Assembly: GCA_902598305.1 (NCBI GenBank) | Contig: CACKBL010000009.1 | Coordinates: 23,279 to 87,278 of the forward strand | DNA length: 64,000 nt | Source of the DNA: an uncultured Bacteroidota bacterium | GTDB taxonomy: Bacteria; Bacteroidota; Bacteroidia; Flavobacteriales; Flavobacteriaceae | Direction of reading: 5' to 3' | Shown: positions 31,574 through 62,316 of the stretch, in pieces | How positions within the stretch are numbered: position 1 is the stretch's first letter | Layout: every line of letters starts with the position of its first letter | Notes under the pieces: model-generated | The model's input: only the letters and a program-made list of their open reading frames with translations | Database searches by the model: none | Told to the model about the DNA's origin: nothing | Program-made: the position numbers and the translations under genes

Positions 31574-31577
31574 AGTA

Positions 31578-32473: not shown

Positions 32474-32540
32474 CTTCCAGAGAGTAGATATTCTCCAAGT
32501 GACAGATATTCTTTTTTTGTACATTTATTTAACCGATACA

Positions 32541-33757: not shown

Positions 33758-33773
33758 AATAAAATAAAATTCT

Positions 33774-33860: not shown

Positions 33861-33881
33861 TTAATTTTTTTAACTAGATGC

Positions 33882-35342: not shown

Positions 35343-35390
35343 GTTGAGATTTTTTATCTTTATTATAACATAATCATAAATCAAATCAAA

Positions 35391-36170: not shown

Positions 36171-36177
36171 CCTAAAA

Positions 36178-36360: not shown

Positions 36361-36474
36361 CCGTCATTATTAAATATTTTTCATTTGGAGGGTTTTTGTT
36401 TTAGTTATAGATAATTTAATTAAGTTGATATACTTCTTTGTATATTGAATGATATTAATCGCAAATAAATTGTA

Positions 36475-37005
36475 ATGAAAAAAATATTTATCGTTGTTGT
36501 TGCTCTATTTATTTTATCTACTACAAGTTGTAATGAAAGTAAAATAGTCAAGGTTGATGATTCATTAAATAAGGAAATATTTAATAAAAATGTTTCGATT
36601 TTCAATACGGCAATAGATGCTTTCGTAAATGAAGATAAAGTTATGTTTATGAACAACTTTGCTGATTCTTTAAAATGGTCTGGACCAGATAAAAAAACAA
36701 GTGATGAGTTTGATTCGAAAGAAGATCTTGCTACCGCAATTAGTGCATATATGGAAATATATGACAATCATGCATTAAAAAACACCACATTTTATGGAGG
36801 AAGTGTTTATTCTACTGATAAACCAAATTCTGACCCCAATACAGGTATTAGAGTTTATGGTGATTGGTATCACAAGCACACAGAAACTGGTAAGGAAGTA
36901 AGTCATAAATGGATGGCATTAGTTTGGTTTAATGAGGCGGGTAAGATTTATGAATTTAGAGATTTTTTTGATGTAAATGGATTTTTAAAGCAACATGTCC
37001 AATAA
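36475..37005 (+). CDS. NTF2/SnoaL-like lipoprotein
   Basis: Lipoprotein signal ALFILSTTSC, with a size and pattern resembling SnoaL-like polyketide-cyclase-fold proteins. Chosen over the overlapping minus-strand ORF 36420..36767. Confidence 0.55.
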   Translation: MKKIFIVVVALFILSTTSCNESKIVKVDDSLNKEIFNKNVSIFNTAIDAFVNEDKVMFMNNFADSLKWSGPDKKTSDEFDSKEDLATAISAYMEIYDNHALKNTTFYGGSVYSTDKPNSDPNTGIRVYGDWYHKHTETGKEVSHKWMALVWFNEAGKIYEFRDFFDVNGFLKQHVQ

Positions 37006-37056
37006 TAGTCTCCAACATAAATCTTTCTGAAATCACATAATAGTTAATTAAAAATA

Positions 37057-41449: not shown

Positions 41450-41485
41450 TTGATGGAGATTATTAATAATTTAAAAATGATAAAA

Positions 41486-46454: not shown

Positions 46455-47016
46455 AATATTTTTTATAATAATAAATTTGATTTTAATTGTTGGTTGTCAA
46501 AAAAAATCCGAGTATTCAACAATATTAACAAGGGAATTAGAAAAGAAAAATGAGTTTAACGACTTGATTTTTGACATGAAAATTGGACAATCAAGGCAAG
46601 ACTATTTTGATATTTGTTATCAACTTAACAAACAAAAAAAGATAATTTCAGGTGAAAGAAGTTTAAATCCAGAGTTAATTCTCAAATCGAAAAACGGTTC
46701 AACAAAAGGGAGTAATATTAAAATGTCATTTAATGGAATTTTTAATGAAAAAAAAACAATGAGAGGTTTTGAAATGAGATTTTATTTTACTGGATGGTCA
46801 AATTGGAATAAAGATTTATCCTCTGAAAATCTTCTATTTCAGTTGAAAGATACACTAAGGAAATGGTTTCCGGGGAATGATTTTTTTAAAGTTAACTTTG
46901 AAAATAATCTTTCTGCTGAAGTAAAAATTGATGGTAACAGGAGAATTTTAGCCTACAAAGTTAACTCCAAGGACGTAGCAGTAAGAATTGAAGATATGAG
47001 TGGTAAATATGATTAA
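46423..47016 (+). CDS. Hypothetical small lipoprotein embedded in the paralog array
   Basis: Lipoprotein signal IIINLILIVGC. 197 aa. Overlaps the upstream gene by 32 nt and the downstream ATG (47009) by 8 nt. Confidence 0.6.
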   Translation: MKKLNFLNLNRIFFIIINLILIVGCQKKSEYSTILTRELEKKNEFNDLIFDMKIGQSRQDYFDICYQLNKQKKIISGERSLNPELILKSKNGSTKGSNIKMSFNGIFNEKKTMRGFEMRFYFTGWSNWNKDLSSENLLFQLKDTLRKWFPGNDFFKVNFENNLSAEVKIDGNRRILAYKVNSKDVAVRIEDMSGKYD

Positions 47017-50000
47017 TTTACGTTTTATTTTTCTGGTTCTTTTTTTGTTTTTGATATCATGTCAAAACAACGATAATCTTTTCGAATTAAAAGATAATAG
47101 GAAGCTGGGAATAAGTTTTTCAAATAATTTAGGTTTTGACAATGATTTTAATGTCTACAAGTATAGAAACTTTTACAATGGTGGAGGGGTAGCGTTAGGA
47201 GATATTAATAATGATGGTTTAATCGATCTTTATTTGACATCAAATCAAAATAAAAACAAACTCTATCTAAATAAGGGAAATTTTACTTTTGAGGACATCA
47301 CAGATTCAGCTAACGTTGGGGGTACTAAGGCTTGGTCAACTGGAGTTACCATGGTGGACATCAATTCTGATGGTCTTTTGGATATTTATGTGTGTAATTC
47401 TGGTGATATAAAAGGAGATAACAAGCAAAATGAACTTTTTGTAAACAATGGAGATTTAACTTTTATTGAATCTGCATCAAATTATAATCTTGATGACAAA
47501 GGATATTCCACACATGCAAGTTTTTTCGATTACGATAAAGATGGAGACTTAGACGTTTATATTTTAAATAATTCTTATCAAGCCATAGGTTCATTTAACC
47601 TAACTAAAAATGAAAGGCCGAAAAGAGACTTACTTGGTGGAGATAAATTAATGGAAAACGTTGATGGGGTTTTTAAAGATGTTAGTGAAAAGTCAAATAT
47701 TTTTGGAAGCGTAATTGGTTTTGGTTTAGGAGTTACAGTTGGGGATACAAATGGAGATGGTTGGGAGGATATTTTTGTGAGTAATGATTTCTTTGAGAGG
47801 GACTATCTCTATATTAATAATAAGGATGGAACTTTCACCGAAGATCTAACTAACCAAATGAAGTCTATAAGTGGTGCGTCCATGGGTGCCGACCTTGCAG
47901 ACATTGATAATGACGGTTTCAATGATATTTTTGTAACGGAGATGCTTCCTTCAAAATATGAAAGACTAAAATCGGTTACCACTTTCGAAGATTGGAATAA
48001 ATACCAATATGTTGTAAAAAATGGATATTATCACCAATTCACAAGGAATGTTTTGCATTTAAACAACGGAAACCAAACATTTAGTGAAATAGGAAGGTTC
48101 GCTGGAGTCGAGGCCTCGGATTGGAGTTGGGGAGCATTATTTTTTGATATGGAAAATGACGGATATAAAGATTTATTTATTGCAAATGGAATCTTTAAAG
48201 ACCTCACTGACCAAGACTATTTGCAATACATATCTAACGATGAAGTTGTAAAGTCAATTGTAATGAATAATGAAGTTGATTACAAAAGGTTAATTGAAAT
48301 AATCCCATCAGAAAAAGTACCGAATCATGCCTATAAAAATCTCAACGGTATTAATTTCAGTTCTTATACAAATTCAGGTTTAGATTTACCAAGTTTTTCT
48401 AATGGATCAGCCTATGGTGATTTAGATAACGATGGCGATTTAGATTTAATTGTAAATAATGTAAACATGCCTCTTTTTGTTTTTGAAAATAAAAACAAAA
48501 GCAAAAATAATTATATAAAACTTGAACTAAAGGGACTCTATAATAACGTAAATGCAATAGGCACCAAAATTATTGTAAAAACCAAAAATGGCATACAAAT
48601 TCAAGAGGTACAGCCCGCAAGAGGCTTTCAATCAACAGTAGATATAAGACCAAATTTTGGATTAGGTGATGCCACAAATGTAGATATAGAAGTTATTTGG
48701 CCTTATGGTAAGAAAACTTTTTTAAAAAATACCAAAGTGAATCAAACTATTTCACTTAATGAAAAAGATGCAATCGAATTTTCAGAAGAATTAACAAATA
48801 ATAAAGCAACTAAACCCCTATTTCAAAAAAATAAAATAAAACCCAATATCGTTCATAAGGAAAGTAATTTCGTAGATTTTAACAGAGAAAGACTTATTTA
48901 CCATATGTGTAGTAGCGAAGGTCCAAAAATAACCAAAGGAGACATCAATGGGGATAATGAAGAAGATATCTTAATTTCCTCTTCAAAAGGGAACACCACT
49001 CAAATATTAATAAAAGATGGGTCTGATTATTATATAGATAAAAAAAACAAAAAATTATTCGATGATTTGAGGGATGTTGAAAATTCGGAAATCATACCTT
49101 TTGATGCAGATAATGATGGAGATTTAGATTTATACTATTCAAGTGGTAGTGTAGAGCACTCAAGATATTCTCAGACATTATATGATAGACTATTATTAAA
49201 TAATGGTAAGGGTGAGTTTATAGATTCAAATCAAAGTTTACCAGATATAAATAGTAAGATTAGTACCGGTGCTGTCATATCTGGTGATATTGATAACGAT
49301 GGAGATTTAGATTTATTTGTTGGTGAAAGGGTGAAAATAGGAAGTTATGGCTCACCTGGATCTGGTTTTATTTTGGTGAATGATGGGAATGGAAATTTTA
49401 CAAATCAAACCAAAAAAATAGCTCCAAACCTAATAAATATAGGAATGATTACTGATGCTTCATTTGAAGATATTGACACAGATGGCAACTTAGATCTTAT
49501 TGTGGTGGGAGAATACATGGGAATCAATATTTTTAAAAATGAAGGGTCACGATTCAATCCAATTCAAAATAAAATTTTAGATGAGAAAGGATGGTGGAAT
49601 GAAATTCATATTTCTGACTTAAATAATGACGGTAAAATTGATTTGATTGTTGGCAACCACGGCTTAAATTCAAGATTTAATGCTAGCAAGTCTAGACCAT
49701 TAAAGCTATATTTTAATGACTTTGATAAAAATGGTTTTGGAGAAGGAATTATTTGTTTTGAGGCCGAAAACGGAAAAGATTACCCTTACGCATTACGTCA
49801 TGATTTGATAGATCAAATTAAAAGTTTAAAGAAAAAATTTCCCGATTACGAATCTTTTAAAAACGCAGACATATCTAAAATTTTTGATGAAAAAATCCTC
49901 AATGAGTCGGATATACTTATTACAAACACATTAGAAACTTCTATATACATAAACAAAGAGGGGTTTGAATTTGAGAAAATTAATATTCCAAGCGAAGTAC

Positions 50001-50278
50001 AATTTAGTCCTGTTTACTCAATTAATAGTCATGATTTCGATGGTGATGGAGACGAAGATATTCTACTAGGCGGAAATTTATATGACGTAAAACCAGAAGT
50101 TGGTATTTATGATGCTTCTTATGGACTATACTTAGAAAATTTAGGTAATCTAAAATTCAAGTATCATAAAGATGGAAACGGTTTTTTTGTAAAAGGAGAA
50201 ATTAGAGATCTTTTAATCTCTGATAAAAATATTTTTGTTTCTAAAAATAACGACAAAATGGAAGTATTTAAATTTTAA
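47009..50278 (+). CDS. FG-GAP/VCBS-repeat + ASPIC/UnbV giant lipoprotein, paralog 2
   Basis: Lipobox FLFLISC. Same blade motifs as paralog 1 (GDINNDGLID, VDINSDGLLD, FDYDKDGDLD, GDLDNDGDLD). ASPIC block NVNAIGTKIIVKT...ARGFQST. The frame is also open from a GTG at 47000. Confidence 0.85.
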   Translation: MINLRFIFLVLFLFLISCQNNDNLFELKDNRKLGISFSNNLGFDNDFNVYKYRNFYNGGGVALGDINNDGLIDLYLTSNQNKNKLYLNKGNFTFEDITDSANVGGTKAWSTGVTMVDINSDGLLDIYVCNSGDIKGDNKQNELFVNNGDLTFIESASNYNLDDKGYSTHASFFDYDKDGDLDVYILNNSYQAIGSFNLTKNERPKRDLLGGDKLMENVDGVFKDVSEKSNIFGSVIGFGLGVTVGDTNGDGWEDIFVSNDFFERDYLYINNKDGTFTEDLTNQMKSISGASMGADLADIDNDGFNDIFVTEMLPSKYERLKSVTTFEDWNKYQYVVKNGYYHQFTRNVLHLNNGNQTFSEIGRFAGVEASDWSWGALFFDMENDGYKDLFIANGIFKDLTDQDYLQYISNDEVVKSIVMNNEVDYKRLIEIIPSEKVPNHAYKNLNGINFSSYTNSGLDLPSFSNGSAYGDLDNDGDLDLIVNNVNMPLFVFENKNKSKNNYIKLELKGLYNNVNAIGTKIIVKTKNGIQIQEVQPARGFQSTVDIRPNFGLGDATNVDIEVIWPYGKKTFLKNTKVNQTISLNEKDAIEFSEELTNNKATKPLFQKNKIKPNIVHKESNFVDFNRERLIYHMCSSEGPKITKGDINGDNEEDILISSSKGNTTQILIKDGSDYYIDKKNKKLFDDLRDVENSEIIPFDADNDGDLDLYYSSGSVEHSRYSQTLYDRLLLNNGKGEFIDSNQSLPDINSKISTGAVISGDIDNDGDLDLFVGERVKIGSYGSPGSGFILVNDGNGNFTNQTKKIAPNLINIGMITDASFEDIDTDGNLDLIVVGEYMGINIFKNEGSRFNPIQNKILDEKGWWNEIHISDLNNDGKIDLIVGNHGLNSRFNASKSRPLKLYFNDFDKNGFGEGIICFEAENGKDYPYALRHDLIDQIKSLKKKFPDYESFKNADISKIFDEKILNESDILITNTLETSIYINKEGFEFEKINIPSEVQFSPVYSINSHDFDGDGDEDILLGGNLYDVKPEVGIYDASYGLYLENLGNLKFKYHKDGNGFFVKGEIRDLLISDKNIFVSKNNDKMEVFKF

Positions 50279-50280: not shown

Positions 50281-53200
50281 ATGATTGTAAATAAAATAAA
50301 ATTGAGTTTATTGTTTTTTGCTTCCACTTTAATCTTATTCTGCTGTAATAAACTTGAAAAGAAAGCTGAAAGTAGTATTAAGTTTAAAACTTTAAATTCT
50401 TCTTATACCGGAATTGATTTCAACAATAAACTTAAATACAAAACAAAACTTAACATTATCGAATATTTATACTATTACAATGGAGGAGGAGTAGCCATTG
50501 GAGACATAAACAATGATGGATTGGAGGATATATATTTTTCAGGGAATCAAGTTTCGGACCGTCTATACCTTAACTTAGGAAATCTAAAATTTAAAGACAT
50601 TACTTTAGCATCAGGTATTAATACGGACAAGTCTTGGTCCAATGGAGTTAGCTTTGAAGATGTAAATAATGATGGATTTTTAGATATATATGTTTGTAAA
50701 GTAAGTCCGATTAGTCCAAAAGGGACTCACAATTTACTTTACATAAACAATAAAAATATGACTTTTACTGAAAGCTCCTCTCTGTTAGGTCTAGATTTTT
50801 CTGGTTTTTCTACCCATTCTACATTTTTGGATTACGATAAAGACGGAGATTTAGATATGTATTTGATGAATCATGCAGTTCATACCGTAAGAAGCTATGG
50901 AAGCTCAAAAAAAAGAAAAGAATCTGACGAATTATCTGGTGACAAGTTTTTTGAAAATAGGTTGAACGAAAAAGATAAAAAGTTCGTAGATGTCACCAAA
51001 GAATCAAACATTTATGATAGTCCATTGGGATATGGTTTAGCCATTACAACAACTGATTTCAATAATGATGGTTGGTTAGATATTTATATTGGAAATGACT
51101 TTCATGAAAATGATTATTTATATTTAAATAACAAAGACAAAACATTTACTGAATCAATAAAAAATTCAATGAGTCACACATCTCATTTTACCATGGGAGT
51201 AGATGTAGCAGATTTAAATCAGGATGGAAGCCTAGATGTATTTACAACAGATATGATGCCCTACGACCCAAAGATATTTTTAAAATCTGGAGGTGAAGAC
51301 TTAGATAAAATTTCAAGAATAAAAAAAGATTTGGGTTTTGAGCAACAATTTTCAAGAAATCATATGCAAATAAGTAGAGGAAACAATACCTTCTCTGAAG
51401 TTGCAATTCAAACCAATACCCACGCAACAGATTGGAGTTGGGGCGTTTTATTACAAGATTTTGACTCGGATGGGAGAGATGATATCTTTATTTCAAATGG
51501 AATATTAAAAAGACCAAATGATTTAGATTACATAAATTATTTAAGCAATGTAGATTTCACTGAATACAACAACTCTCGTCAAGATGTGATTAAGAAAAAA
51601 CTTATTGATAAGATGCCAACACTTAAAATTCCTAACCTTTTTTTTAAAAATAATGGAAATTTAAATTTTGAAAAAGTAAATCCATCTTTCACTGGTATTC
51701 CCTCTTACAGCAATGGTGCTGCATATGCCGACTTAGATCTTGATGGAGATTTAGATATCGTTCTAAACAACTTAAATTCTGAGGCATCAGTTCTTGAAAA
51801 TCTTACGGAAAAATCAAATTTTCTTTCTGTAAAATTAGTTGGAAACGAAAAGTATCCCGTAACAAGGGGGTCAAGAATAGTTTTATACTTAAATAACACA
51901 AAACTTGTTAAGGAGGATATAATTACTAGAGGCTTTCAATCATCTTCTTCACATAATATTTTTTTTGGATTGGGTAAAAACAAAAACATTGATTCTTTAA
52001 TTATAAGATGGCCAGATGGAGTTAAAGAAACAAAGATGGTAACAAAAATTAATCAAAGAGTAAATATCTATAAAAGTAACTATCGTTTTAAAAATAAGGA
52101 GGAGGTCGAAATAAAAAAATCAAAGGATTTTGAAATTAATTATCTTCCCATCAAGCATAAAGAAATCGAATATTATGATTATGAAAAAGAGAGACTAATT
52201 CCAGAGAAATTGTCATTTGAAGGGCCTGCAGCCGTGAAAGCCGACTTTAATAATGACGGCCTTGAGGATTTTTTTATTGGAGGTGCAAAATTTCAAAGAG
52301 GCAAGATTTTTCTATCAAATAAAAATAATGGATATGAAGAGGTTAAAAATATGGATTTACAAAAAGATAATATCTTCGAAGACACAGACGCGGCAGCTTT
52401 TGATATTGACAAAGATGGAGACCTTGATCTTTATGTTGTTAGTGGTGGAAATGAGTACAAAGAATTGGACAAAAATTATATGGATCGTGTCTATTTAAAT
52501 GATGGACTTGGGAATTTTACACGTCTTCAAATCCCCCTTCCAAAGACAAATGGCTCTTCAGTATCGGTTTCTGATTTTAACAATGACGGTTATGAGGATT
52601 TGTTTGTAGGGTCAAGGTCAATAACAGGTTTTTATGGGTTAAGTCCTTACAGTTTTATTATGCTAAACAATAGAGATAATACCTTATCGCCTATGGAGCA
52701 GCAAAGATATGGAATGGTGACAGATAGCAAATGGGTTGATTTTAATTCTGATGGAAAAAAAGATCTTATTTTAGTAGGTGATTGGATGCCGATAACTATA
52801 TTAATACAAGAGGATGATTTAAAATTTGTGAACAAAACAGATGAGTACGGACTTTCTAAAACAAATGGACTATGGAATGTAGTTGAGATTAATGATTTCA
52901 ACAAAGATGGTAGAATGGATATAATTGCTGGAAATGCGGGGACTAATTTTAAATGGAAGCCTTCAATTAAGAAACCCGTAAAATTATATTTGGATGATTT
53001 TGATAATAATTTGCAACCTGATCCAATTATATTTTATGAATTTTTTGGAAAATACGTCCCTTTTTCTTCAAAAGATAAACTAGATAAACAGTTGCCTTTT
53101 TTGAAAAAGAAGTTCCCAAACTATAATAACTTTTCAAGCATCAACAATATTAAATCTTTGACAGGTAAAGATGAAAATGAAATACTTGAAATAAAATACA

Positions 53201-53568
53201 TTTATGATCTCGAATCTTCTATTTTTATAAATGAAGAAGATGGTTTTAAAAAATATGCTTTGCCACCTAATGCACAACTTAGTAGTATTGAAGATTTTAA
53301 AATTTTTAAGAAATCAAGTAGTATAAATAACGTAATTTACGTAGGAAATTTCAGTAAATATGTTACGGAACTTGGATTCTCAAGTGCTAATCCTGGCGGT
53401 TTATTATTAGATTTTGATACCAAACAAATGAAATTTAAAAAATCAAAATCTCTTCCTTTACCAATTAATAAAGATTTTAAAGAGATAATACGATTTGATA
53501 AAAATTATTTGATATTTACAAATAATGATTTCATATTCTCTTTGAAAGCGGACTACTTAGAACAATAA
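50281..53568 (+). CDS. FG-GAP/VCBS-repeat + ASPIC/UnbV giant lipoprotein, paralog 3 (most diverged)
   Basis: Lipobox-like LILFCC. Blade motifs GDINNDGLED, EDVNNDGFLD, LDYDKDGDLD and ADLDLDGDLD. ASPIC-like block TRGSRIVLYL...TRGFQSS. Starts 2 nt after the paralog 2 stop. Confidence 0.85.
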   Translation: MIVNKIKLSLLFFASTLILFCCNKLEKKAESSIKFKTLNSSYTGIDFNNKLKYKTKLNIIEYLYYYNGGGVAIGDINNDGLEDIYFSGNQVSDRLYLNLGNLKFKDITLASGINTDKSWSNGVSFEDVNNDGFLDIYVCKVSPISPKGTHNLLYINNKNMTFTESSSLLGLDFSGFSTHSTFLDYDKDGDLDMYLMNHAVHTVRSYGSSKKRKESDELSGDKFFENRLNEKDKKFVDVTKESNIYDSPLGYGLAITTTDFNNDGWLDIYIGNDFHENDYLYLNNKDKTFTESIKNSMSHTSHFTMGVDVADLNQDGSLDVFTTDMMPYDPKIFLKSGGEDLDKISRIKKDLGFEQQFSRNHMQISRGNNTFSEVAIQTNTHATDWSWGVLLQDFDSDGRDDIFISNGILKRPNDLDYINYLSNVDFTEYNNSRQDVIKKKLIDKMPTLKIPNLFFKNNGNLNFEKVNPSFTGIPSYSNGAAYADLDLDGDLDIVLNNLNSEASVLENLTEKSNFLSVKLVGNEKYPVTRGSRIVLYLNNTKLVKEDIITRGFQSSSSHNIFFGLGKNKNIDSLIIRWPDGVKETKMVTKINQRVNIYKSNYRFKNKEEVEIKKSKDFEINYLPIKHKEIEYYDYEKERLIPEKLSFEGPAAVKADFNNDGLEDFFIGGAKFQRGKIFLSNKNNGYEEVKNMDLQKDNIFEDTDAAAFDIDKDGDLDLYVVSGGNEYKELDKNYMDRVYLNDGLGNFTRLQIPLPKTNGSSVSVSDFNNDGYEDLFVGSRSITGFYGLSPYSFIMLNNRDNTLSPMEQQRYGMVTDSKWVDFNSDGKKDLILVGDWMPITILIQEDDLKFVNKTDEYGLSKTNGLWNVVEINDFNKDGRMDIIAGNAGTNFKWKPSIKKPVKLYLDDFDNNLQPDPIIFYEFFGKYVPFSSKDKLDKQLPFLKKKFPNYNNFSSINNIKSLTGKDENEILEIKYIYDLESSIFINEEDGFKKYALPPNAQLSSIEDFKIFKKSSSINNVIYVGNFSKYVTELGFSSANPGGLLLDFDTKQMKFKKSKSLPLPINKDFKEIIRFDKNYLIFTNNDFIFSLKADYLEQ

Positions 53569-53685: not shown

Positions 53686-53693
53686 TAGATTTG
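53686..53693 (+). promoter_or_regulatory. Candidate -7 promoter box (TAnnTTTG) upstream of the PSCyt/DUF1553 gene
   Basis: TAGATTTG lies about 45 nt upstream of the ATG at 53738, inside the only sizeable intergenic gap (169 nt) of the downstream operon. Confidence 0.3.
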
Positions 53694-53737: not shown

Positions 53738-56700
53738 ATGCAGATGAGAGTTTTATTTTTTGTTTTATTTGTTTTTTCTTACGGATGTACTTTAACCGTT
53801 CCCAAAGAGGTAGAGGTTAAATTCAGCGAAATACCGGGAAGAGTTGACTTTAACTATCACGTAAAACCGATACTTTCTGATAGGTGCTATTCTTGCCACG
53901 GTCCTGACGAAAAATCAAGAAGGGCTGGACTTAGATTAGACCAAGAAAAAACTGCTTTTATGAAATTATCCAGTGGTAAGAAGGCAATAGATCCAGGAAG
54001 TTTGGGTGGAAGTGAAATGGCTCACAGGATTTTATCTGATGATCCTGATGAAGTTATGCCTACTCCTGAATCTAACTTAAGTTTAACCAATACTGAAAAA
54101 GCAATCCTTTTAAAATGGATTGAACAAGGTGCAGAGTGGAAAGAACATTGGTCTTTTTTACCTGTTCAGGAAGTTTCAAGTTCGTCTTCAGACCAGTTTA
54201 AAAATCCAATTGATTATTTTATTTCAAAAAAACTTCAAGCAAAGGGATTAAATTTTTCCGCTAAGTCATCTAAAGAGAAACTAATTAGGAGATTATATTT
54301 CGACTTAACGGGCTTACCTCCATCAATTGAGGAAGTCGAATCTTTTGTAAAGTCAGATGACAAAAATGCATACCTAAATATCGTAAACAAACTTCTTGGT
54401 AGTGATGAGCATGCAGAAAGATTAACTATGGATTGGTTAGATGTGTCTAGATACGCTGACTCTCATGGGCTTCACGCAGATGGTATAAGGACGATGTGGC
54501 CTTGGAGAGATTGGGTAATTAATGCATTTAAAAGTAATACCCCCTACGATGAATTTGTTTCGGTTCAACTCAGCGGTGATATGAGAGAAAATGCCACGAA
54601 AGAAGAGAAATTAGCTACTGCATTTAATAGAAATAACCCAATGACAGCAGAGGGAGGGGTTATTGACGAAGAGTGGCGACTAAATTATGTTTTTGATAGA
54701 ACTGAAACCCTAGGCACAGCTGTAATGGGATTGACACTTATGTGTGCAAAGTGTCATGATCACAAATTTGACCCTATTTCCCAAAAAGACTATTACCAAT
54801 TATCCGCTTTTTTTAACCAAACTAGAGAAATAGGAATGACTGGTGACGACGGAGATTTTGGACCTTTACTTTTTTTACCAGATGAGAAAATTGAAAAAAA
54901 ATTGAATAAAATTCAATTGGCCATAAACACAAAAAATAAAGAATTAGATACTAAGATTCAAGAATTAGAGAGGTTTTACAGTTATGTTGATAATTTATCA
55001 AATTTTGATTCTAAATCTATTGCTAGAAAAAACATAATTGAAAAAGTTTCTTTTAATAAAATTAGAAAACAAAAAGTTACAAGTGATGATAAAATACTTA
55101 TAGTTCAGGGTTCATTTGGACGTGAAACAGATTTTATCATTGACAATAGTAGAGATATAACATCTTACCACAAACAAGATCTTGGTAAAGGTATAGTTGG
55201 CAGGGCGTTAGAATTTGACGGAAGTAATCAAGTGTTTGTAGAAAAAGTACCTAACTTTGAATGGACTGAATCCTTTTCTGCTGCTTTTTGGTTTAAAACA
55301 ACAAAAAGAAAAAAAGGATTTACTCAAAGCTTACTTACCACCACAGGTGGGAAAAATTCTTGGTGGAGAGGCTGGGATTTAATCTTGGATGATAAAAATT
55401 ATTTAAATTTAAGACTAATCAGCTCCCTACCTGGTGATGCTATTCACGTTAAATCATTGGATTCACTGAAAGTAAACAACTGGCATCATGTTGCTTTTTC
55501 ATATGATGGTAGTGGAAATTCTTCAGGTATTAATTTATTTTTAAATGGTGAAAAAATCAATAAAAAAGTAGTTTTTGACAATTTAAAAAAATCAATTTTG
55601 CCTGTTTCAAGTAGTGGAATCCATCTTCAAGAACAAGCACTTAAAATTGGGGCATCAGGAGATTTTTCTTCAGGTGATAATGGATGGGTCGAAGGGCTAA
55701 TGGACGAGTTATTTGTGTTTAACAAATCAATAAGTACTTATGAATTAAAAAATTTATATAATACATATAATATCGAGAAAAAAGTATTTGATAATAAAGA
55801 AAAAGTTGAACATCTAATCTTTAATGACGCGTCTATCATAAAAATCAAAAGGCAAATTAAAAATTTAAAAAAACAGTGGCTAGATAATATTTCAGATGTT
55901 AAAACTGTTATGGTCATGGAGGAGATGAAAGAAAAAAGAAAGACTTTTCTTTATGACAGAGGAAGCTACCAGTTACCTAGTTACGAAGTTGAGGCCGATG
56001 TTCCATCTAAACTCCCCAAAATGTCTCCTGATATGCCCAAAAATAGGCTTGGACTTTCAAAATGGATATTTGATAAAAAAAATCCACTGACGGCAAGAGT
56101 TGCGGTTAATAGGTATTGGCAGATGGTTTTTGGAAGAGGTATTGTAAATACTCCTGGTGACTTTGGGGTCCAAGGACAGCTTCCATCACATCCTAACTTA
56201 CTCGAATATCTTTCTTACTATTTTATGGAGAAAGATTGGAATATAAGAGATTTGTTAAGATTGATGGTGACATCGCATACGTATATGCAATCTTCTAAAC
56301 CCAATCAAAAACAAGTTGAAATCGATCCTGACAACATACTTCTTTCAAGAAGTAATAGTTACAGGTTACCTGCTGAAATGATTAGAGATAATGCCTTAGC
56401 TGCTAGTGGATTACTTGTAAAACATATTGGAGGAAAAAGTGTAAGACCATACCAACCTAAAGGTTTGTGGAAAGAGAAATCAAATTTTTCAATTAAACTT
56501 TTAAATTATAAAGAATCAACTGGAGATAGTTTGTATAGAAGAAGTATGTACACATTTATAAGAAGAACAAACCCACCTCCATCTATGTCAACTTTTGATG
56601 CTCCTACGAGGGAGGTCTGTACGGTAAAAAGAGAAATAACAAATACTCCTTTACAAGCACTCGTTTTATTAAATGACCCACAATTTGTCGAAGCTTCAAG

Positions 56701-56992
56701 AATTCTAGCAGAAAGGATTCAAAAAGAAAAGCCTTCCTCTATTGAGGAATCAATTAAGCATGGATTTCGTTTGTGTACCTCGAGAAAACCAAGAGACAAG
56801 GAAATAGAATTACTTAAGAATTTGTATGATCAGCAGTTAAAAAAATTCAAACAAAACCCTAAACTCGCATATAATATTTTTAAAAATGGAAAAAAACCTA
56901 GAGATAAAACCTTAAATTTATATAAAACTGCAGCGCTATCCATGGTGGCAAATGTAATGTTAAACCATGATGAAGTTTATATGAAAAGATAA
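53738..56992 (+). CDS. Planctomycete-type cytochrome-like protein: PSCyt/DUF1549 - LamG lectin-like - DUF1553/PSD1
   Basis: CxxCH at CYSCH (53885-53899) within HVKPILSDRCYSCHGPDEKSRRAGLRLD. DUF1549-like FISKKLQAKGL...RRLYFDLTGLPPS. Second CxxCH, CAKCHDHKFDP (54743-54757). LamG-like LEFDGSNQVF...WHHVAFSYDG...LFLNGE. DUF1553-like C-terminus (RVAVNRYWQMVFGRGIV, FDAPTREVCTVKR). Confidence 0.85.
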   Translation: MQMRVLFFVLFVFSYGCTLTVPKEVEVKFSEIPGRVDFNYHVKPILSDRCYSCHGPDEKSRRAGLRLDQEKTAFMKLSSGKKAIDPGSLGGSEMAHRILSDDPDEVMPTPESNLSLTNTEKAILLKWIEQGAEWKEHWSFLPVQEVSSSSSDQFKNPIDYFISKKLQAKGLNFSAKSSKEKLIRRLYFDLTGLPPSIEEVESFVKSDDKNAYLNIVNKLLGSDEHAERLTMDWLDVSRYADSHGLHADGIRTMWPWRDWVINAFKSNTPYDEFVSVQLSGDMRENATKEEKLATAFNRNNPMTAEGGVIDEEWRLNYVFDRTETLGTAVMGLTLMCAKCHDHKFDPISQKDYYQLSAFFNQTREIGMTGDDGDFGPLLFLPDEKIEKKLNKIQLAINTKNKELDTKIQELERFYSYVDNLSNFDSKSIARKNIIEKVSFNKIRKQKVTSDDKILIVQGSFGRETDFIIDNSRDITSYHKQDLGKGIVGRALEFDGSNQVFVEKVPNFEWTESFSAAFWFKTTKRKKGFTQSLLTTTGGKNSWWRGWDLILDDKNYLNLRLISSLPGDAIHVKSLDSLKVNNWHHVAFSYDGSGNSSGINLFLNGEKINKKVVFDNLKKSILPVSSSGIHLQEQALKIGASGDFSSGDNGWVEGLMDELFVFNKSISTYELKNLYNTYNIEKKVFDNKEKVEHLIFNDASIIKIKRQIKNLKKQWLDNISDVKTVMVMEEMKEKRKTFLYDRGSYQLPSYEVEADVPSKLPKMSPDMPKNRLGLSKWIFDKKNPLTARVAVNRYWQMVFGRGIVNTPGDFGVQGQLPSHPNLLEYLSYYFMEKDWNIRDLLRLMVTSHTYMQSSKPNQKQVEIDPDNILLSRSNSYRLPAEMIRDNALAASGLLVKHIGGKSVRPYQPKGLWKEKSNFSIKLLNYKESTGDSLYRRSMYTFIRRTNPPPSMSTFDAPTREVCTVKREITNTPLQALVLLNDPQFVEASRILAERIQKEKPSSIEESIKHGFRLCTSRKPRDKEIELLKNLYDQQLKKFKQNPKLAYNIFKNGKKPRDKTLNLYKTAALSMVANVMLNHDEVYMKR

Positions 56993-57000
56993 ATTTAAAT

Positions 57001-58458
57001 ATGAATTGTAATCACCACCACCATAACGAAAAATTTTCTAGGAGAGATTTTTTAACAAAAACCTCTCTAGGACTGGGTGCCCTAACACTTGGATCCCTAA
57101 TAAGTCCTGCAAGAGCTTTTAGTGGGGTTTCAAGTCTAAATAATGTAAATATTCCACCTCAAATACCACATTTTCCTGCAAAAGCTAAAAGAATTATTTA
57201 TTTGTTCCAGAGTGGTGCACCTTCTCAAATAGATCTTTTTGATCACAAACCTCTTATAACAGAGATGCATGGTAAAGAGTTACCCCCAAGCGTTAGAGGT
57301 GGCCAAAGGTTGACAGGTATGAGTGCAGGTCAAGCTTCGTTTCCACTAGTATCATCTATTTATGATTTTAAACAGTATGGTCAAAGCGGAGCTTGGGTTA
57401 GTGAACTAATGCCGCATACGTCAAAAATTGTTGATGAGCTTTGTTTCATTAAATCGATGTACACAGAAGAAATTAATCATGACCCAGCTGTTACTTTTAT
57501 TCAAACAGGTTCAAACCTTCCCGGTAGACCTTCAATGGGTTCATGGATTAGCTATGGTTTAGGATCTGACAATAAAAATCTACCCGAATTCGTAGTACTT
57601 GTCACAAAAGATAAACAGGGTCAGCCTTTATATGCTCGTTCTTGGGGTAACGGATTTTTACCATCCAAATACCAAGGTGTCCAATTTAGATCTGGTAAGG
57701 ATGCTGTTCTTTATTTACAAAATCCACCGGGTGTAACGGGTGACTTGAGAAGAGAACAACTTGAATATTTAAAAAAACTTGAAAATGATAATTATAGAGA
57801 TATAGGTGATCCTGAAATTTTATCTAGAATGTCTCAGTATGAAATGGCATACAGAATGCAAACATCTGTCCCTGAAGTCATGGATGTTTCGGACGAACCA
57901 GATTATATTTTTGATATGTATGGGGAGGATAGTAAAAACCCCGGGACATTTGCAGCTAATTGTCTGCTTGCAAGAAAACTTATAGAAAAAGATGTAAAAT
58001 TTGTTCAATTATATCATCAAGGGTGGGATCACCATGGGAATTTAAATAAAGAACTCAAAATACAATGCAAAGACACAGATCAACCCTCTGCAGCTCTTAT
58101 TATGGATTTAAAACAAAGAGGTCTTCTAGAAGACACACTAGTGATATGGGGTGGAGAATTTGGGAGAACTAATTATACTCAAGGCGTTATAACCGACCCT
58201 GGTTATGGTAGAGATCATCATCCAAGATGTTTTACTATCTTCATGGCAGGCGCTGGAATAAAAAAAGGAATCACTTACGGAGCAACCGATGAATTCGGTT
58301 ATAATTTAAGGGAAAACCCAGTCCATGTTCATGATTTTCAAGCCACAATTTTGCACCTTTTGGGTCTTGATCACGAAAAATTAACTTTTAAGCACCAGGG
58401 CAGGAGATATAGATTAACAGATGTTCACGGAAAAATTGTAAACGATATACTTGTATGA
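57001..58458 (+). CDS. DUF1501-family protein (sulfatase/alkaline-phosphatase-like fold) with a Tat signal
   Basis: Tat leader SRRDFLTKTSLGLGALTLG. DUF1501-like blocks GWDHHGN, WGGEFGRT and GRDHHP. Confidence 0.85.
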   Translation: MNCNHHHHNEKFSRRDFLTKTSLGLGALTLGSLISPARAFSGVSSLNNVNIPPQIPHFPAKAKRIIYLFQSGAPSQIDLFDHKPLITEMHGKELPPSVRGGQRLTGMSAGQASFPLVSSIYDFKQYGQSGAWVSELMPHTSKIVDELCFIKSMYTEEINHDPAVTFIQTGSNLPGRPSMGSWISYGLGSDNKNLPEFVVLVTKDKQGQPLYARSWGNGFLPSKYQGVQFRSGKDAVLYLQNPPGVTGDLRREQLEYLKKLENDNYRDIGDPEILSRMSQYEMAYRMQTSVPEVMDVSDEPDYIFDMYGEDSKNPGTFAANCLLARKLIEKDVKFVQLYHQGWDHHGNLNKELKIQCKDTDQPSAALIMDLKQRGLLEDTLVIWGGEFGRTNYTQGVITDPGYGRDHHPRCFTIFMAGAGIKKGITYGATDEFGYNLRENPVHVHDFQATILHLLGLDHEKLTFKHQGRRYRLTDVHGKIVNDILV

Positions 58459-59510
58459 AAAAAAATAATAATTCTAGAAGAAATTTTATAAAAAATTCTG
58501 CTATTGTTGGATTAGGTGTTGCTTCAGCTAACAAAACATTCTCTATTGGAAAAAAAAGTAAATCGTTAGAAAATACTATTGGGCACAACGGATTTACATA
58601 TAAAATTGATAAAAGTTGGAGTAAACAGAATTTAAACACACACCCAGTTCATCATTGTCATGAAATGATTATGGATAAAAAAGGAAGATTATTCATGACA
58701 ACAACACACAAAAAAAATAATGTTTTGGTTTACAATAAGGATGGAAATATTTTAGATGGTTGGAGCGTCGGATTTAATGGTGCGCATGGATTAACACTTA
58801 GTAATGAAGGTGGTACTGAATTTTTATATATTACCGATCCAGATTTGCATAGGGTGTGTAAAACCGATTTGAACGGAAAACTCATTCTCGAAATTTTTTA
58901 TCCTAAAGAAATTAAAGATTATTCTTCCCAAGATGACTTTAAACCAACCGAAACTGCAATTGCCCCAAATGGAGATATATATATCGCTGACGGTTATGGT
59001 AAAGATTTTATTATAAAATACGATCAAAAAGGAAACTACATAGGACATTTTGGAGGTAAGGGAGATGGTAAAAACCATTTTGATTGTTGTCATGGGATAA
59101 CCCTTGATAGCCGATTTAATCAAAACCCAACTCTTCTTATTTCATCTAGAACAAAAAATGAGTTCAAAAGATTTACTTTGAGTGGAAAACATTTAGAGAC
59201 TATCTCTCTTCCAGGTTATTGGATGTGTAGACCAGTTATCAAAGGCGATAATCTTTATTTTGCTATTATTAATACTTACAATTGGTGGAATTATGATGGT
59301 ATGATTGCAGTTTTAGATAAAAATAATAAAGTAATTTCACTTCCAGGAGGAGGTAAGCCATCATATAATAATGGTGTAATTAATAAACCCGTTTATGACG
59401 ATCGTAGTTTTCTAAACCCACACGATGTTTGTGTAGACGATGACGAAAACATCTACGTTCCTCAGTGGAACTCGGGTAGAACAACTCCTTTAAAATTAAT
59501 TAGAGTTTAA
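58455..59510 (+). CDS. Tat-signal six-bladed beta-propeller protein (NHL/PAL-like)
   Basis: Tat leader SRRNFIKNSAIVGLGVASA. Repeated blade-like motifs (AHGLTL, DIYIADGYG, CHGITLD, NIYVPQWNSG). The ATG overlaps the upstream TGA (ATGA). Confidence 0.65.
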   Translation: MKKNNNSRRNFIKNSAIVGLGVASANKTFSIGKKSKSLENTIGHNGFTYKIDKSWSKQNLNTHPVHHCHEMIMDKKGRLFMTTTHKKNNVLVYNKDGNILDGWSVGFNGAHGLTLSNEGGTEFLYITDPDLHRVCKTDLNGKLILEIFYPKEIKDYSSQDDFKPTETAIAPNGDIYIADGYGKDFIIKYDQKGNYIGHFGGKGDGKNHFDCCHGITLDSRFNQNPTLLISSRTKNEFKRFTLSGKHLETISLPGYWMCRPVIKGDNLYFAIINTYNWWNYDGMIAVLDKNNKVISLPGGGKPSYNNGVINKPVYDDRSFLNPHDVCVDDDENIYVPQWNSGRTTPLKLIRV

Positions 59511-59519
59511 ACTTTACTT

Positions 59520-60872
59520 TTGGAAGCTGTTTTTTTTCTTGGAAGATTTCATCCATTGCTAGTTCACTTGCCAATTGGTTTTTTGATTCTTGCTATTTTA
59601 ATTGAAGTTTATTGCTCTATTTTTAAAATTAGAATTAATCAGAGTGTAATCAATTTTACTTGGTTTGTAGCTTTCTTTTCCTCTGTCTTGACAACAATTC
59701 TAGGGCTTTTAATTGCAGAGACAGGTCATTACATAGATGAAAATTTATCTATGCATAAAATCTTTGGTTTGTCTTTAACAGGAATCACATTCATATCATG
59801 GTTTCTAAGGTTATCCATTTTTTCAAATTTATTTTCATCTTCACTAAAAACATTATCAAATGTCATAATCGTTATCCTTTTAACTTTAACGGGTCATTAC
59901 GGTGGAAATTTAACCCATGGTGAAACATATCTTGTGGATTATGCTCCAGAACAAATAAAAGAGCTAGTTGTTAATAAAAATAAAAACATAGAATTAGAAA
60001 TTGATTCTGTAAAAATTTACAATGACCTTATACAACCGATTTTTAATCAAAAGTGTGTTTCTTGCCACAACAAAGAAATATCTAGAGGAAATCTAAATAT
60101 GGATTCCTACAGTAATCTTCTAAAGGGTGGGAGTAGTGGTAATCCTATAAATAAATCTGACCCTAGAAAAAGCTTGTTGATAAAGAGAATTACTATGCCA
60201 ACAAGTGAACTCAAATATATGCCTCCAGATGGAGAGCCTGTATCATTTGATGAAATTAAAACTCTTATATGGTGGATAAATAATTTTGACAAATCGAATG
60301 AAAATTTAGCATCATTAAAAGTTGAGGATGATATAAAAGAATCACTTGAAATACTTTATAGTTTGAATTTTAAAGAAAAACAATGGTTCGAAAAAATCGT
60401 AGTAGAAAAATTAGATGAATCTTTAATTCAAAATATTGATAATACTACATTTCAAATTAAATACATTTCGGATGACAAAAAATTTCTGTCAGTAAAATAC
60501 TTAAAGAAAAATGCAAGTATTAATGATATTGAAAAACTTCAAAAAATTAGCAGTAATATTACCTATCTCACAGTAAAATCTTCAAATCTGTCTAATGATA
60601 TGATCAAAAGCATATCTAATTTTAAAAACATAGTAAAACTTGAGATTCAAGACAATAATATTGATGATGAAAGTATTGAAATTCTTCAATCACTCAATAA
60701 TCTTGAAATACTTAACATCCACAACACAAAAATTACAAATAGAGCTATTGAATCCCTTAAAAATTTTAAAAATTTAAAAAGGGCATATGTTTGGGGAACA
60801 AGTATATCTAAAAATGAAGTAGACGATTTTAACAGAAAGGATTCAAAGCTTAAATTAATTGGAGGGAATTAA
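59520..60872 (+). CDS. Membrane protein: DUF2231-like 4-TM domain + PSCyt1-type CxxCH domain + leucine-rich repeats
   Basis: FHPLLVHLPIGF (DUF2231-like). CxxCH CVSCH at 60054-60068, within IQPIFNQKCVSCHNKEISRGNLNM. C-terminal LRRs (LEIQDNNIDDESIEILQSLNNLEILNIHNTKITNRAIESLKNFKNLK). TTG start inferred. Confidence 0.7.
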   Translation: MEAVFFLGRFHPLLVHLPIGFLILAILIEVYCSIFKIRINQSVINFTWFVAFFSSVLTTILGLLIAETGHYIDENLSMHKIFGLSLTGITFISWFLRLSIFSNLFSSSLKTLSNVIIVILLTLTGHYGGNLTHGETYLVDYAPEQIKELVVNKNKNIELEIDSVKIYNDLIQPIFNQKCVSCHNKEISRGNLNMDSYSNLLKGGSSGNPINKSDPRKSLLIKRITMPTSELKYMPPDGEPVSFDEIKTLIWWINNFDKSNENLASLKVEDDIKESLEILYSLNFKEKQWFEKIVVEKLDESLIQNIDNTTFQIKYISDDKKFLSVKYLKKNASINDIEKLQKISSNITYLTVKSSNLSNDMIKSISNFKNIVKLEIQDNNIDDESIEILQSLNNLEILNIHNTKITNRAIESLKNFKNLKRAYVWGTSISKNEVDDFNRKDSKLKLIGGN

Positions 60873-60966: not shown

Positions 60967-62316
60967 ATGAGGAAGGTATTTAAACACTTTATTATTTTAT
61001 TTTTGACTGTTAGCTGCGTAAGTAAAGAATTTAATCAAGATGAGCTTAATGATGCAGCACTTTTTCATTCTGCGATGCAAAACCTATCAGATATAATTGT
61101 GTATGATATTTTTTCTCCCCCTGTTGCCTCCAGAGTTTATCTATATCCTTCGATCGCGGCTTACGAACTAATGGCTAAAGACATGCCTCTAAAGTATAAA
61201 TCCCTTGTTGGTCAGGTAAAAGGATTAACAAAAATACCTGAACCAGATAAAATTTTTAAAAATTACAACTTAAATCTTACTATTTTATTTGCATTTAACA
61301 AAGTTGGAAGGGCACTTATTTTTTCAGATGAATTGATGGATAAGTTTGAAAAAAGGTTTAACGACAAGTTAATTTCAATGGGCGTACCTAAAAAAATAAA
61401 AACTGCCTCTGAAAAATACGCAGAAAGGGTTGCTAAGCATATTTTAAATTGGGCGAAAGACGACTTATATAATCAAACAAGAACATATTCAAAATATACA
61501 ATTTTAGAAGACGAGGTTTTTTGGAAACCCACGCCGCCAGATTACATGGATGGAATTGAACCTCACTGGAATAAAATTAGAACTTTAGTTTTAGACTCAG
61601 CAAATCAATTTGTTCCAAAAAAACCGTTAAAGTTTGATTTGACAAAGGGCAGTCCTTTTCAAAAGCAACTCCAAGAAGTTTATGAGATTGGAAATATAAT
61701 GGATCCTGAAAAGATTGAGATTGCAAAGTTTTGGGATTGTAACCCTTATGTAACGCACCATAGAGGACATGCAATGTTTGCAACCAAAAAAATAACACCA
61801 GGTGGACACTGGATTGGTATTACGGCTATTGCTGGTAGAACAGCAAATAGTAATTTTGGCGAAGTAGTAAATGCTTATGCCAATGTTTCAATTTCATTGT
61901 TCGACTCTTTTATTAGTTGCTGGGATGAAAAGTGGAGGTCTATATTGGTTAGACCAGAAACTCTAATTAATCAGCACTATGATGAAGAATGGTTACCTCT
62001 TCTACAAACCCCACCATTTCCCGAGTACACAAGTGGTCATTCAGTAATTTCTCGAGCTGCTGCAACATCTCTTACCAGATTATATGGTGACAATTTTAAA
62101 TTCACTGATACAACTGAGGTTGCATACGGTCTACCGTCAAGAAAATACAATTCATTTATTGAAGCTTCTGACGAAGCGGCTATATCTAGACTATATGGCG
62201 GTATACACTATAGAATGGCTATTGAGGAGGGAGTTTCGCAAGGAGTAAAGGTTGGAAATTTTATATCTGAGAATCTTAAGACAAACCTAGATTCTTACAA
62301 ATTAGCAACAAAATAA
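60967..62316 (+). CDS. PAP2-superfamily vanadium-haloperoxidase-like lipoprotein
   Basis: Lipobox LFLTVSC. PAP2/vanadate-site motifs K-x6-RP (KWRSILVRP, 61930-61956), SGH (62032-62040) and SR-x5-H (SRLYGGIH, 62185-62208). Confidence 0.75.
   Translation: MRKVFKHFIILFLTVSCVSKEFNQDELNDAALFHSAMQNLSDIIVYDIFSPPVASRVYLYPSIAAYELMAKDMPLKYKSLVGQVKGLTKIPEPDKIFKNYNLNLTILFAFNKVGRALIFSDELMDKFEKRFNDKLISMGVPKKIKTASEKYAERVAKHILNWAKDDLYNQTRTYSKYTILEDEVFWKPTPPDYMDGIEPHWNKIRTLVLDSANQFVPKKPLKFDLTKGSPFQKQLQEVYEIGNIMDPEKIEIAKFWDCNPYVTHHRGHAMFATKKITPGGHWIGITAIAGRTANSNFGEVVNAYANVSISLFDSFISCWDEKWRSILVRPETLINQHYDEEWLPLLQTPPFPEYTSGHSVISRAAATSLTRLYGDNFKFTDTTEVAYGLPSRKYNSFIEASDEAAISRLYGGIHYRMAIEEGVSQGVKVGNFISENLKTNLDSYKLATK

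Follow-up and report, generated by a model that had tools for sequence, protein, structure and literature searches.

A four-gene PSCyt/PSD and DUF1501 cassette recurring across Bacteroidota: a possible periplasmic heme- and metal-dependent enzyme system

What do the PSCyt/PSD and DUF1501 proteins do? The two families were described in 2004, and their function has been unassigned since, with redundancy in the Planctomycetes–Verrucomicrobia–Chlamydiae (PVC) bacteria hampering genetics. The gene pair, including variants with a LamG domain, occurs in many diverse clusters in Planctomycetes and Verrucomicrobia (Kamneva et al., 2012; PMC3542564). A compact version is found in a 64,000-nucleotide (nt) stretch of contig CACKBL010000009.1 from an uncultured member of the Flavobacteriaceae (the window, by which the whole stretch is meant), where a PSCyt/PSD gene and a DUF1501 gene (g1 and g2) are followed by genes encoding a six-bladed propeller (g3) and a membrane protein with a cytochrome-like domain (g4). 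These four genes make up a genuine operon, found again in many Bacteroidota. The reading that we favor, to which we assign a probability of about 40%, is that their products form one periplasmic heme- and metal-dependent enzyme system at the inner membrane, which would couple oxidation of a glycan-type substrate to electron transfer and then cleave it; redox/hydrolytic processing is what we infer for the cassette from sequence.

The operon lies on the plus strand, as do all other features of the window located below. Gene g1 (53738–56992) encodes a lipoprotein of 1084 amino acids (aa) with the architecture PSCyt1-PSCyt2-LamG-PSD1; g2 (57001–58458) encodes a DUF1501 protein of 485 aa and g3 (58455–59510) a PAL-like six-bladed NHL propeller of 351 aa, both predicted to be exported by the twin-arginine translocation (Tat) route; and g4 (59520–60872), starting with TTG, encodes an inner membrane protein of 450 aa that combines a DUF2231 four-helix domain, a PSCyt1 domain, and a leucine-rich repeat (LRR) domain. 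An 8-nt gap separates g1 from g2, g2 and g3 overlap by 4 nt, and a 9-nt gap separates g3 from g4. The reading frames and spacings of an original prediction, made from the letters alone, were exactly reproduced, and all three of its CxxCH motifs translate at the positions that it gave. In addition, Pfam supports its domain calls (PSCyt1/PSCyt2/PSD1, LamG, DUF1501, NHL/PAL-like, and DUF2231-PSCyt1-LRR), and the Tat leaders that it assigned to g2 and g3 both pass the TIGR01409 cut-off.

Do the four genes belong together? One genome per GTDB species was scanned with an alignment of g3, giving at least 575 relatives, the best 80 of which were mapped; these 80, all Bacteroidota, comprise Flavobacteriaceae, Cytophagales, Cyclobacteriaceae, Roseivirgaceae, Saprospiraceae, Chitinophagales, and Lewinellaceae. 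Genes g1, g2, and g4 were found beside g3 in 43 of the 60 Bacteroidota species representatives with enough flanking DNA, and g4 with g3 only in two. Because the same set recurs in dozens of genomes, the association of the four genes goes far beyond chance, and the co-occurrence on which the original prediction had been made to depend is borne out, both by these counts and by proteins in which g4 and g3 are fused. The prediction had described the set as a feature of a flavobacterium; it is indeed present there, but is not peculiar to such an organism, being wide in Bacteroidota and also found in at least one Planctomycetota metagenome-assembled genome (MAG) and on two taxonomically unassigned metagenome contigs.

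The gene order is mostly 1-2-3-4. Saprospiraceae, along with some others, have 1-2-4-3 or 1-2-1-2-4-3, and Chitinophagales have 1-2-3-4-4. At 45–52% identity of g4, contigs carrying its homologs keep the order FG-GAP, FG-GAP, g1, g2, g3, g4, together with the tight spacing. The cassette is present in the cultured Eudoraea adriatica DSM 19308, Maribacter algarum, Ulvibacterium marinum, Poritiphilus flavus, and Cytophaga sp. FL35, with Pseudozobellia also among the Flavobacteriaceae relatives in the g3 scan. It is also plentiful among MAGs of pelagic marine Flavobacteriales, those from Tara data included.

At least six unrelated genomic contexts were found for the cassette. In the window's clade only, it is joined to SusC/D and FG-GAP/ASPIC genes; in an MS024-2A-like clade, it has an MBL-fold gene on its 5′ side and PIG-L, GFO/IDH/MocA, gluconokinase-like, 6PGD, sulfatase, and DAO genes on its 3′ side. 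In a third context it is flanked on one side by a Mur-ligase gene (probably MurF, with a probable GldJ gene before it) and on the other by a gene for an FMN-dependent hydroxyacid dehydrogenase, and in Eudoraea it lies between Fur/PurA and an LptD-like gene. In Saprospiraceae, a P450 gene is located 3′ of the cassette, and the 1-2-3-4-4 version of Chitinophagales has no conserved flanking genes.

The third context, that is, the Mur-ligase site, is occupied in 12 Flavobacteriaceae loci by the full cassette, by g3 alone, by g4 alone (as in Zobellia roscoffensis), or by a 1-1-2-4 set. The lone g3 copies at this site keep all of the catalytic residues, and therefore parts of the cassette can persist separately; we interpret the partial sets as remnants of a movable cassette that has been eroded and reshuffled. 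A gene encoding an FGE-sulfatase domain was considered as a further partner here and rejected, since the synteny of PorV, this 555-aa protein (probably GldJ), and the Mur-ligase (probably MurF) is seen with or without the cassette. The 1-1-2-4 set (L006:1755-15857) consists of two tandem g1 paralogs, g2, and g4, with no g3, and is directly followed by genes for an FMN-dependent dehydrogenase, a DHDPS/NanA-like lyase, a GlcNAc 2-epimerase, and a BNR sialidase; these neighbors suggest a possible link to sialic-acid-type substrates.

The fusion proteins bear on whether the products of the four genes also work together. In an exhaustive search with g3, which yielded 144 clusters at E ≤ 1e-30, Pfam showed the architecture DUF2231-PSCyt1-LRR-(F5/8 type C)-NHL in two proteins (P0487 and P0481) and PSCyt1-...-NHL in three others (P0465, P0501, and P0504). 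The fusions align to nearly all of g4 and then to g3, and retain H69, H111, Y181, H213, R232, and H323 of g3 as well as the five conserved DUF2231 His residues of g4. Since g4 and g3 are one polypeptide in these proteins, the two separate products are very probably physically coupled, with the LRR domain placed between the cytochrome domain and the propeller. P0501 comes from a Planctomycetota MAG according to its NCBI annotation, two other fusion contigs being taxonomically unassigned, and the fusion gene was located directly 3′ of a PSCyt1/PSCyt2/(LamG)/PSD1 gene and a DUF1501 gene in all three contigs examined. The guanine-plus-cytosine (GC) content of the Planctomycetota contig is 71%, compared with approximately 30% in the window. 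The four-component system is thus cross-phylum, because fusions follow g1-type and DUF1501 genes in a Planctomycetota contig as well.

An account that needs no joint work would hold that the genes are chance neighbors, or are shared merely through the ancestry of close relatives, and g3 or g4 does stand alone in some genomes. However, the same set is found in at least six contexts across Flavobacteriaceae, Cytophagales, Saprospiraceae, and Chitinophagales, in the permuted 1-2-4-3 order too, and recurs with g4 and g3 fused in the 71% GC contig. We regard this account as extremely improbable, and adjacency by chance in itself is ruled out by the co-occurrence in 43 of 60 representatives together with the fusion contigs.

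The nature of the four products can be approached through their domains, beginning with the hemes. In g1, Pfam matches were obtained for PSCyt1 (nt 53885–54067, residues 50–110; 1e-15), PSCyt2/DUF1549 (nt 54206–54826, residues 157–363; 2.4e-77), LamG as Laminin_G_3 (nt 55220–55744, residues 495–669; 3e-13), and PSD1/DUF1553 (nt 56042–56824, residues 769–1029; 1.2e-97), with the PSCyt1, PSCyt2, and PSD1 matches all exceeding the gathering scores. The lipobox Cys17 is approximately 90% conserved. Among 47 homologs, the first heme motif, C50YSCH (nt 53885–53899), is conserved as C50xxCH54 in 94% and the second, C336AKCH (nt 54743–54757), in 100%, so that conservation of the CxxCH motifs, which the original prediction had taken as decisive for heme attachment, holds at 94–100%. 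The second motif stands within a longer one, C-A-x-C-H-D-H-K-x-D-P (residues 336–346, nt 54743–54775), that is itself 100% conserved in the 47 homologs and may represent a heme site in an unusual environment or another metal site. The LamG region matches PDB 4qvs (E 5.5e-6), and this domain aside, sequence and profile searches of the PDB with g1 gave no significant relative; a resemblance between PSCyt1 and the C-terminal heme domain of hydrazine synthase alpha was rejected as not significant (E 0.3).

The third heme motif, C179VSCH (nt 60054–60068), belongs to g4, in which Pfam recognizes the DUF2231 four-helix domain (nt 59547–59915, residues 10–132; 1.1e-9), PSCyt1 (nt 60054–60233; 5e-11), and the LRR domain (nt ~60360–60794). 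An AlphaFold2 model of g4 has a mean predicted local distance difference test (pLDDT) score of 84 and contains four helices (residues 16–35, 41–66, 73–96, and 107–133), and a Foldseek search of the PDB with this model returned LRR proteins only, with nothing for the DUF2231 domain. H11, H16, H79, H126, H133, C179xxCH183, and M234-P235 are 98–100% conserved in 62 homologs, and also in the fusions; the five His residues, which belong to the DUF2231 domain, are invariant from Bacteroidota to Planctomycetota. By our positive-inside reading of the topology, all five are predicted to lie at the periplasmic face of the membrane, with the cytochrome and LRR domains also predicted to be periplasmic.

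The PSCyt1 domains of both g1 and g4 appear to fit a class I c-type cytochrome, as judged from the CxxCH motif followed by a conserved Met-Pro pair, the Met being the probable distal ligand. The pair is invariant in close g1 homologs (M107-P108, in a 32-sequence alignment) and in g4 homologs down to approximately 35% identity (M234-P235). Further traits in keeping with this class are the lipoprotein signal of g1 and the position of the g4 cytochrome domain downstream of four transmembrane helices.

A His-rich membrane domain combined with hemes and LRRs could alternatively serve sensing or metal homeostasis, handling or sensing iron, copper, or a redox signal with no catabolic role at all. The five invariant His residues at the membrane surface, the typical use of LRR domains as binding or sensor modules, and the presence of a gene for a Fur-family regulator beside the cassette in Eudoraea and Poritiphilus are all in line with such a role. 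However, the Fur adjacency is confined to one lineage, and the cassette has no conserved association with a kinase, a sigma or anti-sigma factor, or a transporter. Moreover, the presence of the PSCyt/DUF1501 pair in many diverse PVC clusters (PMC3542564) is fitted better by catabolic diversification. Sensing or metal homeostasis is therefore, in our judgment, very unlikely.

The clearest pointer to a catalytic site comes from g3. Pfam assigns g3 to NHL and DUF5128 six-bladed propellers, and sequence matches in the PDB are to PAL and to the NHL domains of TRIM and Thin proteins; against rat PAL (PDB 3fvz), approximately 110 residues align with an E of 2.9e-8. In this alignment, H111, Y181, H213, and H323-D324 of g3 correspond to PAL positions 585, 654, 690, and 786-787, and R232 corresponds to R706 by manual alignment. 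We take PAL 585, 690, and 786 to be the zinc ligands, 654 the catalytic Tyr, and R706 the carboxylate-binding Arg. All 84 homologs, and the fusion proteins as well, retain H111, Y181, H213, R232, and H323-D324, and H69, R220, R239, C258, and R259 are also invariant. By these alignments g3 has a PAL-type metal site of three His residues and the Tyr, probably together with the Arg. Its Tat motif is SRRNF (TIGR01409, 17.7 bits against a cut-off of 16.7). Compared with PAL (PDB 3fvz and 5wm0), which is likewise a six-bladed NHL propeller with the three His, Tyr, and Arg, g3 has low overall similarity, is bacterial and Tat-exported, carries the extra invariant residues, and has cytochrome c and carbohydrate-binding modules, not a copper monooxygenase, as its linked or fused partners. 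Identification of g3 as ScyF was rejected, the score being 36.9 bits against a cut-off of 350. Elsewhere, g3-like propellers are fused to a PF06439 3-keto-disaccharide hydrolase domain, a GDSL esterase domain, or F5/8-type-C modules (P0534 at L091:8001-9686, P0468, P0490, and P0528), at least the one in L091 being outside a PSCyt context.

The likeness to PAL raises the idea that the cassette is a counterpart of the PHM/PAL/cytochrome b561 system, in which g4 would supply electrons, g1 and g2 would hydroxylate the carbon beside an amide nitrogen, and g3 would cleave the resulting carbinolamide, giving oxidative N-dealkylation of peptides or N-acylated compounds. The retention in g3 of what are presumably the three zinc-binding His residues, the catalytic Tyr, and the carboxylate-binding Arg of PAL speaks for this idea, as do the fusion proteins, which tether g3 to a membrane cytochrome; two PF00144 serine hydrolase genes and a PIG-L deacetylase gene are also located upstream in the window, and DAO-family oxidoreductase and PIG-L genes lie beside the cassette in another clade. 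Nevertheless, the cassette contains no domain resembling a copper monooxygenase, His/Met-ligated c-type cytochromes are electron carriers rather than oxygenases, the LamG and F5/8-type-C modules suggest glycans, and no peptidase is a conserved neighbor, which together make N-dealkylation a distinctly unlikely chemistry for the cassette.

With respect to g2, the DUF1501 assignment is firm (Pfam 2.7e-160), and the protein is 53–58% identical to the product of the DUF1501 gene of Planctomycetota-type loci. Its Tat leader (nt 57037–57117) scores 21.9 bits with TIGR01409 against the cut-off of 16.7, with R14, R15, and F17 invariant among close homologs, and S75, D81, N159, H160, D343, H345, E386, D405, H406, H407, H444, D445, H452, and H458 are at least 97% conserved. 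The Pfam clan of DUF1501 is presumably the alkaline-phosphatase superfamily. There is no match of g2 to the Pfam family Sulfatase (PF00884), and the formylglycine motif C/S-x-P-x-R, which in S1 sulfatases lies approximately 40 residues beyond a DD metal site, is absent from it. When g2 was aligned with 12 S1 sulfatases by hhalign, only residues 340–458 were aligned (probability 52%, E 1.4e-4), with the N-terminal half unaligned and E386-F387 occupying the metal position of the sulfatase D-N pair. Weak profile matches were found to ENPP4 and an S1_8 sulfatase (E 0.4–0.7), and sequence and profile searches of the PDB with g2 gave no significant relative.

These alignments are the starting point of the most serious alternative, hydrolytic scavenging, in which g2 would be a sulfatase- or phosphatase-like esterase, g3 a hydrolase that needs a metal, for instance a lactonase, and the LamG domain of g1 the holder of the ligand, with the cytochromes having a structural, sensing, or redox-gating role. 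In its favor, S1 sulfatases and, weakly, ENPP4 can be aligned to the C-terminal half of DUF1501 in the region of the metal-binding strand; one database record labels a g2 homolog "sulfatase"; canonical sulfatase genes occur near 15 loci and in L089; g3 has a weak Pfam match to the SGL/gluconolactonase family; and a gluconokinase-like gene and a 6PGD gene lie 3′ of the cassette in approximately 12 species. However, besides lacking C/S-x-P-x-R, g2 has Glu-Phe in place of the sulfatase Asp-Asn metal pair, and the metal site of g3 is that of PAL, not that of SMP30-type lactonases. Furthermore, conservation of the three heme motifs and the distal ligands at 94–100% across phyla is hard to explain without electron transfer. 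We therefore consider a purely hydrolytic system to be unlikely.

In the favored reading, oxidation would be coupled to electron transfer and followed by cleavage. The complex would be anchored by g4, whose DUF2231 His cluster and class I cytochrome c domain would link it to the redox system of the membrane and whose LRR domain would dock g3. The LamG domain of g1 would bind a glycan-type substrate, which g1 and g2 would oxidize in an electron-transfer-coupled manner, with the hemes relaying electrons in the direction of the aerobic respiratory chain. The oxidized intermediate would then be resolved by g3, acting as a lyase or hydrolase dependent on a metal. The whole would be an oxidize-then-cleave route, alternative to glycoside hydrolases, and in this genome the upstream SusC/D pair and three FG-GAP/ASPIC lipoproteins would deliver the substrate. 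The predicted export routes are coherent: the CxxCH motifs are in g1, which has a Sec/lipoprotein signal, and in the membrane protein g4, and none are in the Tat-exported g2 and g3, for which Tat leaders are what would be expected of enzymes that take up a metal or cofactor while folding in the cytoplasm.

A carbohydrate substrate is hinted at by domains, namely LamG in g1, F5/8-type-C (galactose-binding-like) modules in the fusions, and the 3-keto-disaccharide hydrolase domain of one g3-like protein. Further hints come from neighboring genes in other lineages (sulfatase, GFO/IDH/MocA, gluconokinase-like, 6PGD, FMN-dependent hydroxyacid dehydrogenase, and sialidase/NanA-like) and, in this window, from the SusC/D pair. 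Membrane-associated periplasmic complexes of a dehydrogenase and cytochrome c, for example glucoside 3-dehydrogenase and gluconate 2-dehydrogenase, consist of Tat-exported catalytic subunits and c-type cytochromes and are attached to the membrane. The cassette resembles them by analogy only, in its Tat-exported putative catalytic subunits, cytochrome c, and membrane attachment, and in having a putative follow-up hydrolase or lyase for an oxidized sugar; unlike in these complexes, Pfam detects no flavin, PQQ, or molybdenum domain in g1–g4, and the putative catalytic subunit appears to be alkaline-phosphatase-like. In the Verrucomicrobia MAGs studied by He et al. (2017; PMC5615132), PSCyt genes are reported to be commoner in genomes from the oxic layer and inversely correlated with glycoside hydrolase genes; the paper also notes their link with sulfatases and with carbohydrate-binding modules.

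Several points nonetheless weigh against the favored reading. The fold that g2 appears to have, that of alkaline phosphatases and sulfatases by a weak alignment of its C-terminal half, is associated with hydrolysis and transfer rather than with redox chemistry, and the AlphaFold2 model of g2 has a pLDDT of 37 and is unusable because its alignment is too shallow (27 sequences; the 120 homologs retrieved correspond to an effective number of approximately 1 at 62% identity). PAL itself is a plain zinc lyase for peptides, not sugars. Because all five invariant DUF2231 His residues are predicted at the periplasmic face, a trans-membrane electron wire through g4 is not evident. Among the 60 representatives, g3 is alone in 15, and one genome has g4 alone, at a site where others hold the full cassette; the parts of the cassette are therefore not strictly interdependent in cis. 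The neighboring genes vary by lineage and are partly housekeeping genes. Finally, the literature searched held no biochemical, expression, or structural data on PSCyt/PSD or DUF1501 proteins, nor any functional study of these families, of DUF2231, or of UnbV/ASPIC with SusD.

How does the cassette relate to what has been described in the PVC bacteria? By domain content, g1 and g2 are full members of the known PSCyt/PSD + DUF1501 class, sharing with the clusters of Planctomycetes, Verrucomicrobia, and Lentisphaerae the core pair of a PSCyt1-PSCyt2-(Laminin_G_3)-PSD1 protein beside a DUF1501 protein with a Tat signal. Four-gene versions with a second protein combining PSCyt1 and a repeat domain are found there too, the published one being composed of DUF1501, a PPC protein, PSCyt1-Big_2-PSCyt2-PSD1, and PSCyt1-WD40 (PMC3542564). 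In the cassette, by contrast, the place of the PPC and PSCyt1/WD40 partners is taken by the PAL-like NHL propeller and the DUF2231-PSCyt1-LRR protein; no PPC, Big_2, or WD40 match was found in g1–g4 by Pfam, the host belongs to the Bacteroidota, and the cassette is joined to a SusC/D locus. The g3/g4 partner set was not found described in the literature searched.

A more specific version of the favored reading, which we put forward as unlikely in its entirety, is that a periplasmic oxidize-then-cleave machine exists across phyla, with the cassette as its minimal, single-copy form; in this machine, a heme chain from g4 to g1 would couple oxidation of a glycan or N-substituted compound by PSCyt2/PSD1-DUF1501 to respiration and the PAL-type g3 would break the activated bond. 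If true, it would give the very large PSCyt/PSD and DUF1501 families their first function and would amount to a non-hydrolytic route of marine organic-matter degradation. The compact cassette in cultured Flavobacteriaceae and Cytophagales could make these "dark matter" families testable, and the recognizable PAL-type active site of g3, together with natural fusions that predict touching partners, allows concrete experiments on an old question.

In the window, the cassette follows a SusC-type TonB-dependent receptor gene (38471–41449; Pfam Plug, TonB_dep_Rec_b-barrel, and CarbopepD_reg), a gene for a SusD-like lipoprotein (41450–43096; SusD_RagB), and three paralogous genes with FG-GAP/VCBS and UnbV_ASPIC matches encoding approximately 1090 aa each (43191–46454, 47000–50278, and 50281–53568), and is followed by a gene for a vanadium-dependent haloperoxidase lipoprotein (60967–62316) and a second SusC-type receptor gene (62406 to the end of the window); every gene from SusC/SusD through 62316 is on the plus strand. 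As in SusC/SusD polysaccharide utilization loci, SusC and SusD are adjacent, and lipoproteins and periplasmic enzymes are co-oriented with them, but no open reading frame (ORF) at 38.4–62.3 kb matches a glycoside hydrolase, polysaccharide lyase, or carbohydrate esterase family in Pfam, only an SGNH esterase and PIG-L being encoded further upstream. Here, a SusC/D locus free of carbohydrate-active enzymes has the cassette as its enzymatic end, a hint that a marine substrate may be imported and processed non-hydrolytically. The original prediction had inserted the cassette between SusC/D-type uptake genes; this stands for the window, with SusC and SusD upstream and a second SusC downstream, but the setting is clade-specific, runs via the three FG-GAP/ASPIC genes, and gives way to unrelated contexts elsewhere, SusC/D being absent beside the four-gene cassette in most other genomes.

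The FG-GAP/ASPIC genes lie immediately 5′ of g1 in nine further loci, and in one Saprospiraceae genome such a gene (L058:6432-9959) is found between g4 and g3, so that the association recurs across orders. A small ORF of 197 aa (46423–47016), which bridges two successive FG-GAP genes by overlapping the 3′ end of the first and the 5′ end of the second, has no Pfam match; it is probably a real gene because a 41% homolog is similarly placed in a second locus, L063, where the order is SusD, small ORF, FG-GAP, and g1–g4. The 449-aa product of 60967–62316, a "PAP2" gene, is a full-length close homolog of the Zobellia galactanivorans vanadium-dependent haloperoxidase (E 5e-142 to PDB 4CIT). This gene follows g4 only in the closest relatives, L007 and L008, and suggests a possible link to peroxide or halide chemistry. 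On the 5′ side of SusC, genes on the plus strand at 30695–38256 encode a PIG-L deacetylase, a GxDLY/SGNH esterase, and two PF00144 (beta-lactamase-family) serine hydrolases, which may be part of the same uptake locus; the cassette of another clade likewise has PIG-L genes beside it.

Is the cassette transcribed only by read-through from the FG-GAP genes? An Rfam search revealed no riboswitch, only two distant tRNAs, and a scan for sigma-70 promoters and terminators, ill-suited to Bacteroidetes, gave matches no commoner than in shuffled sequence. In several relatives, the gap between the FG-GAP gene and g1 is merely ~6–25 nt. The Bacteroidetes −7 promoter element has the consensus TAnnTTTG, which is fitted by TAGATTTG (53686..53693, plus strand), a candidate element 44 nt 5′ of the g1 start codon. 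TAGATTTG is located within a block shared by the window and its 89–91% relative L008, the rest of the 169-nt spacer being divergent. Because it fits the consensus and sits in this conserved block, g1–g4 may have a promoter of their own besides read-through.

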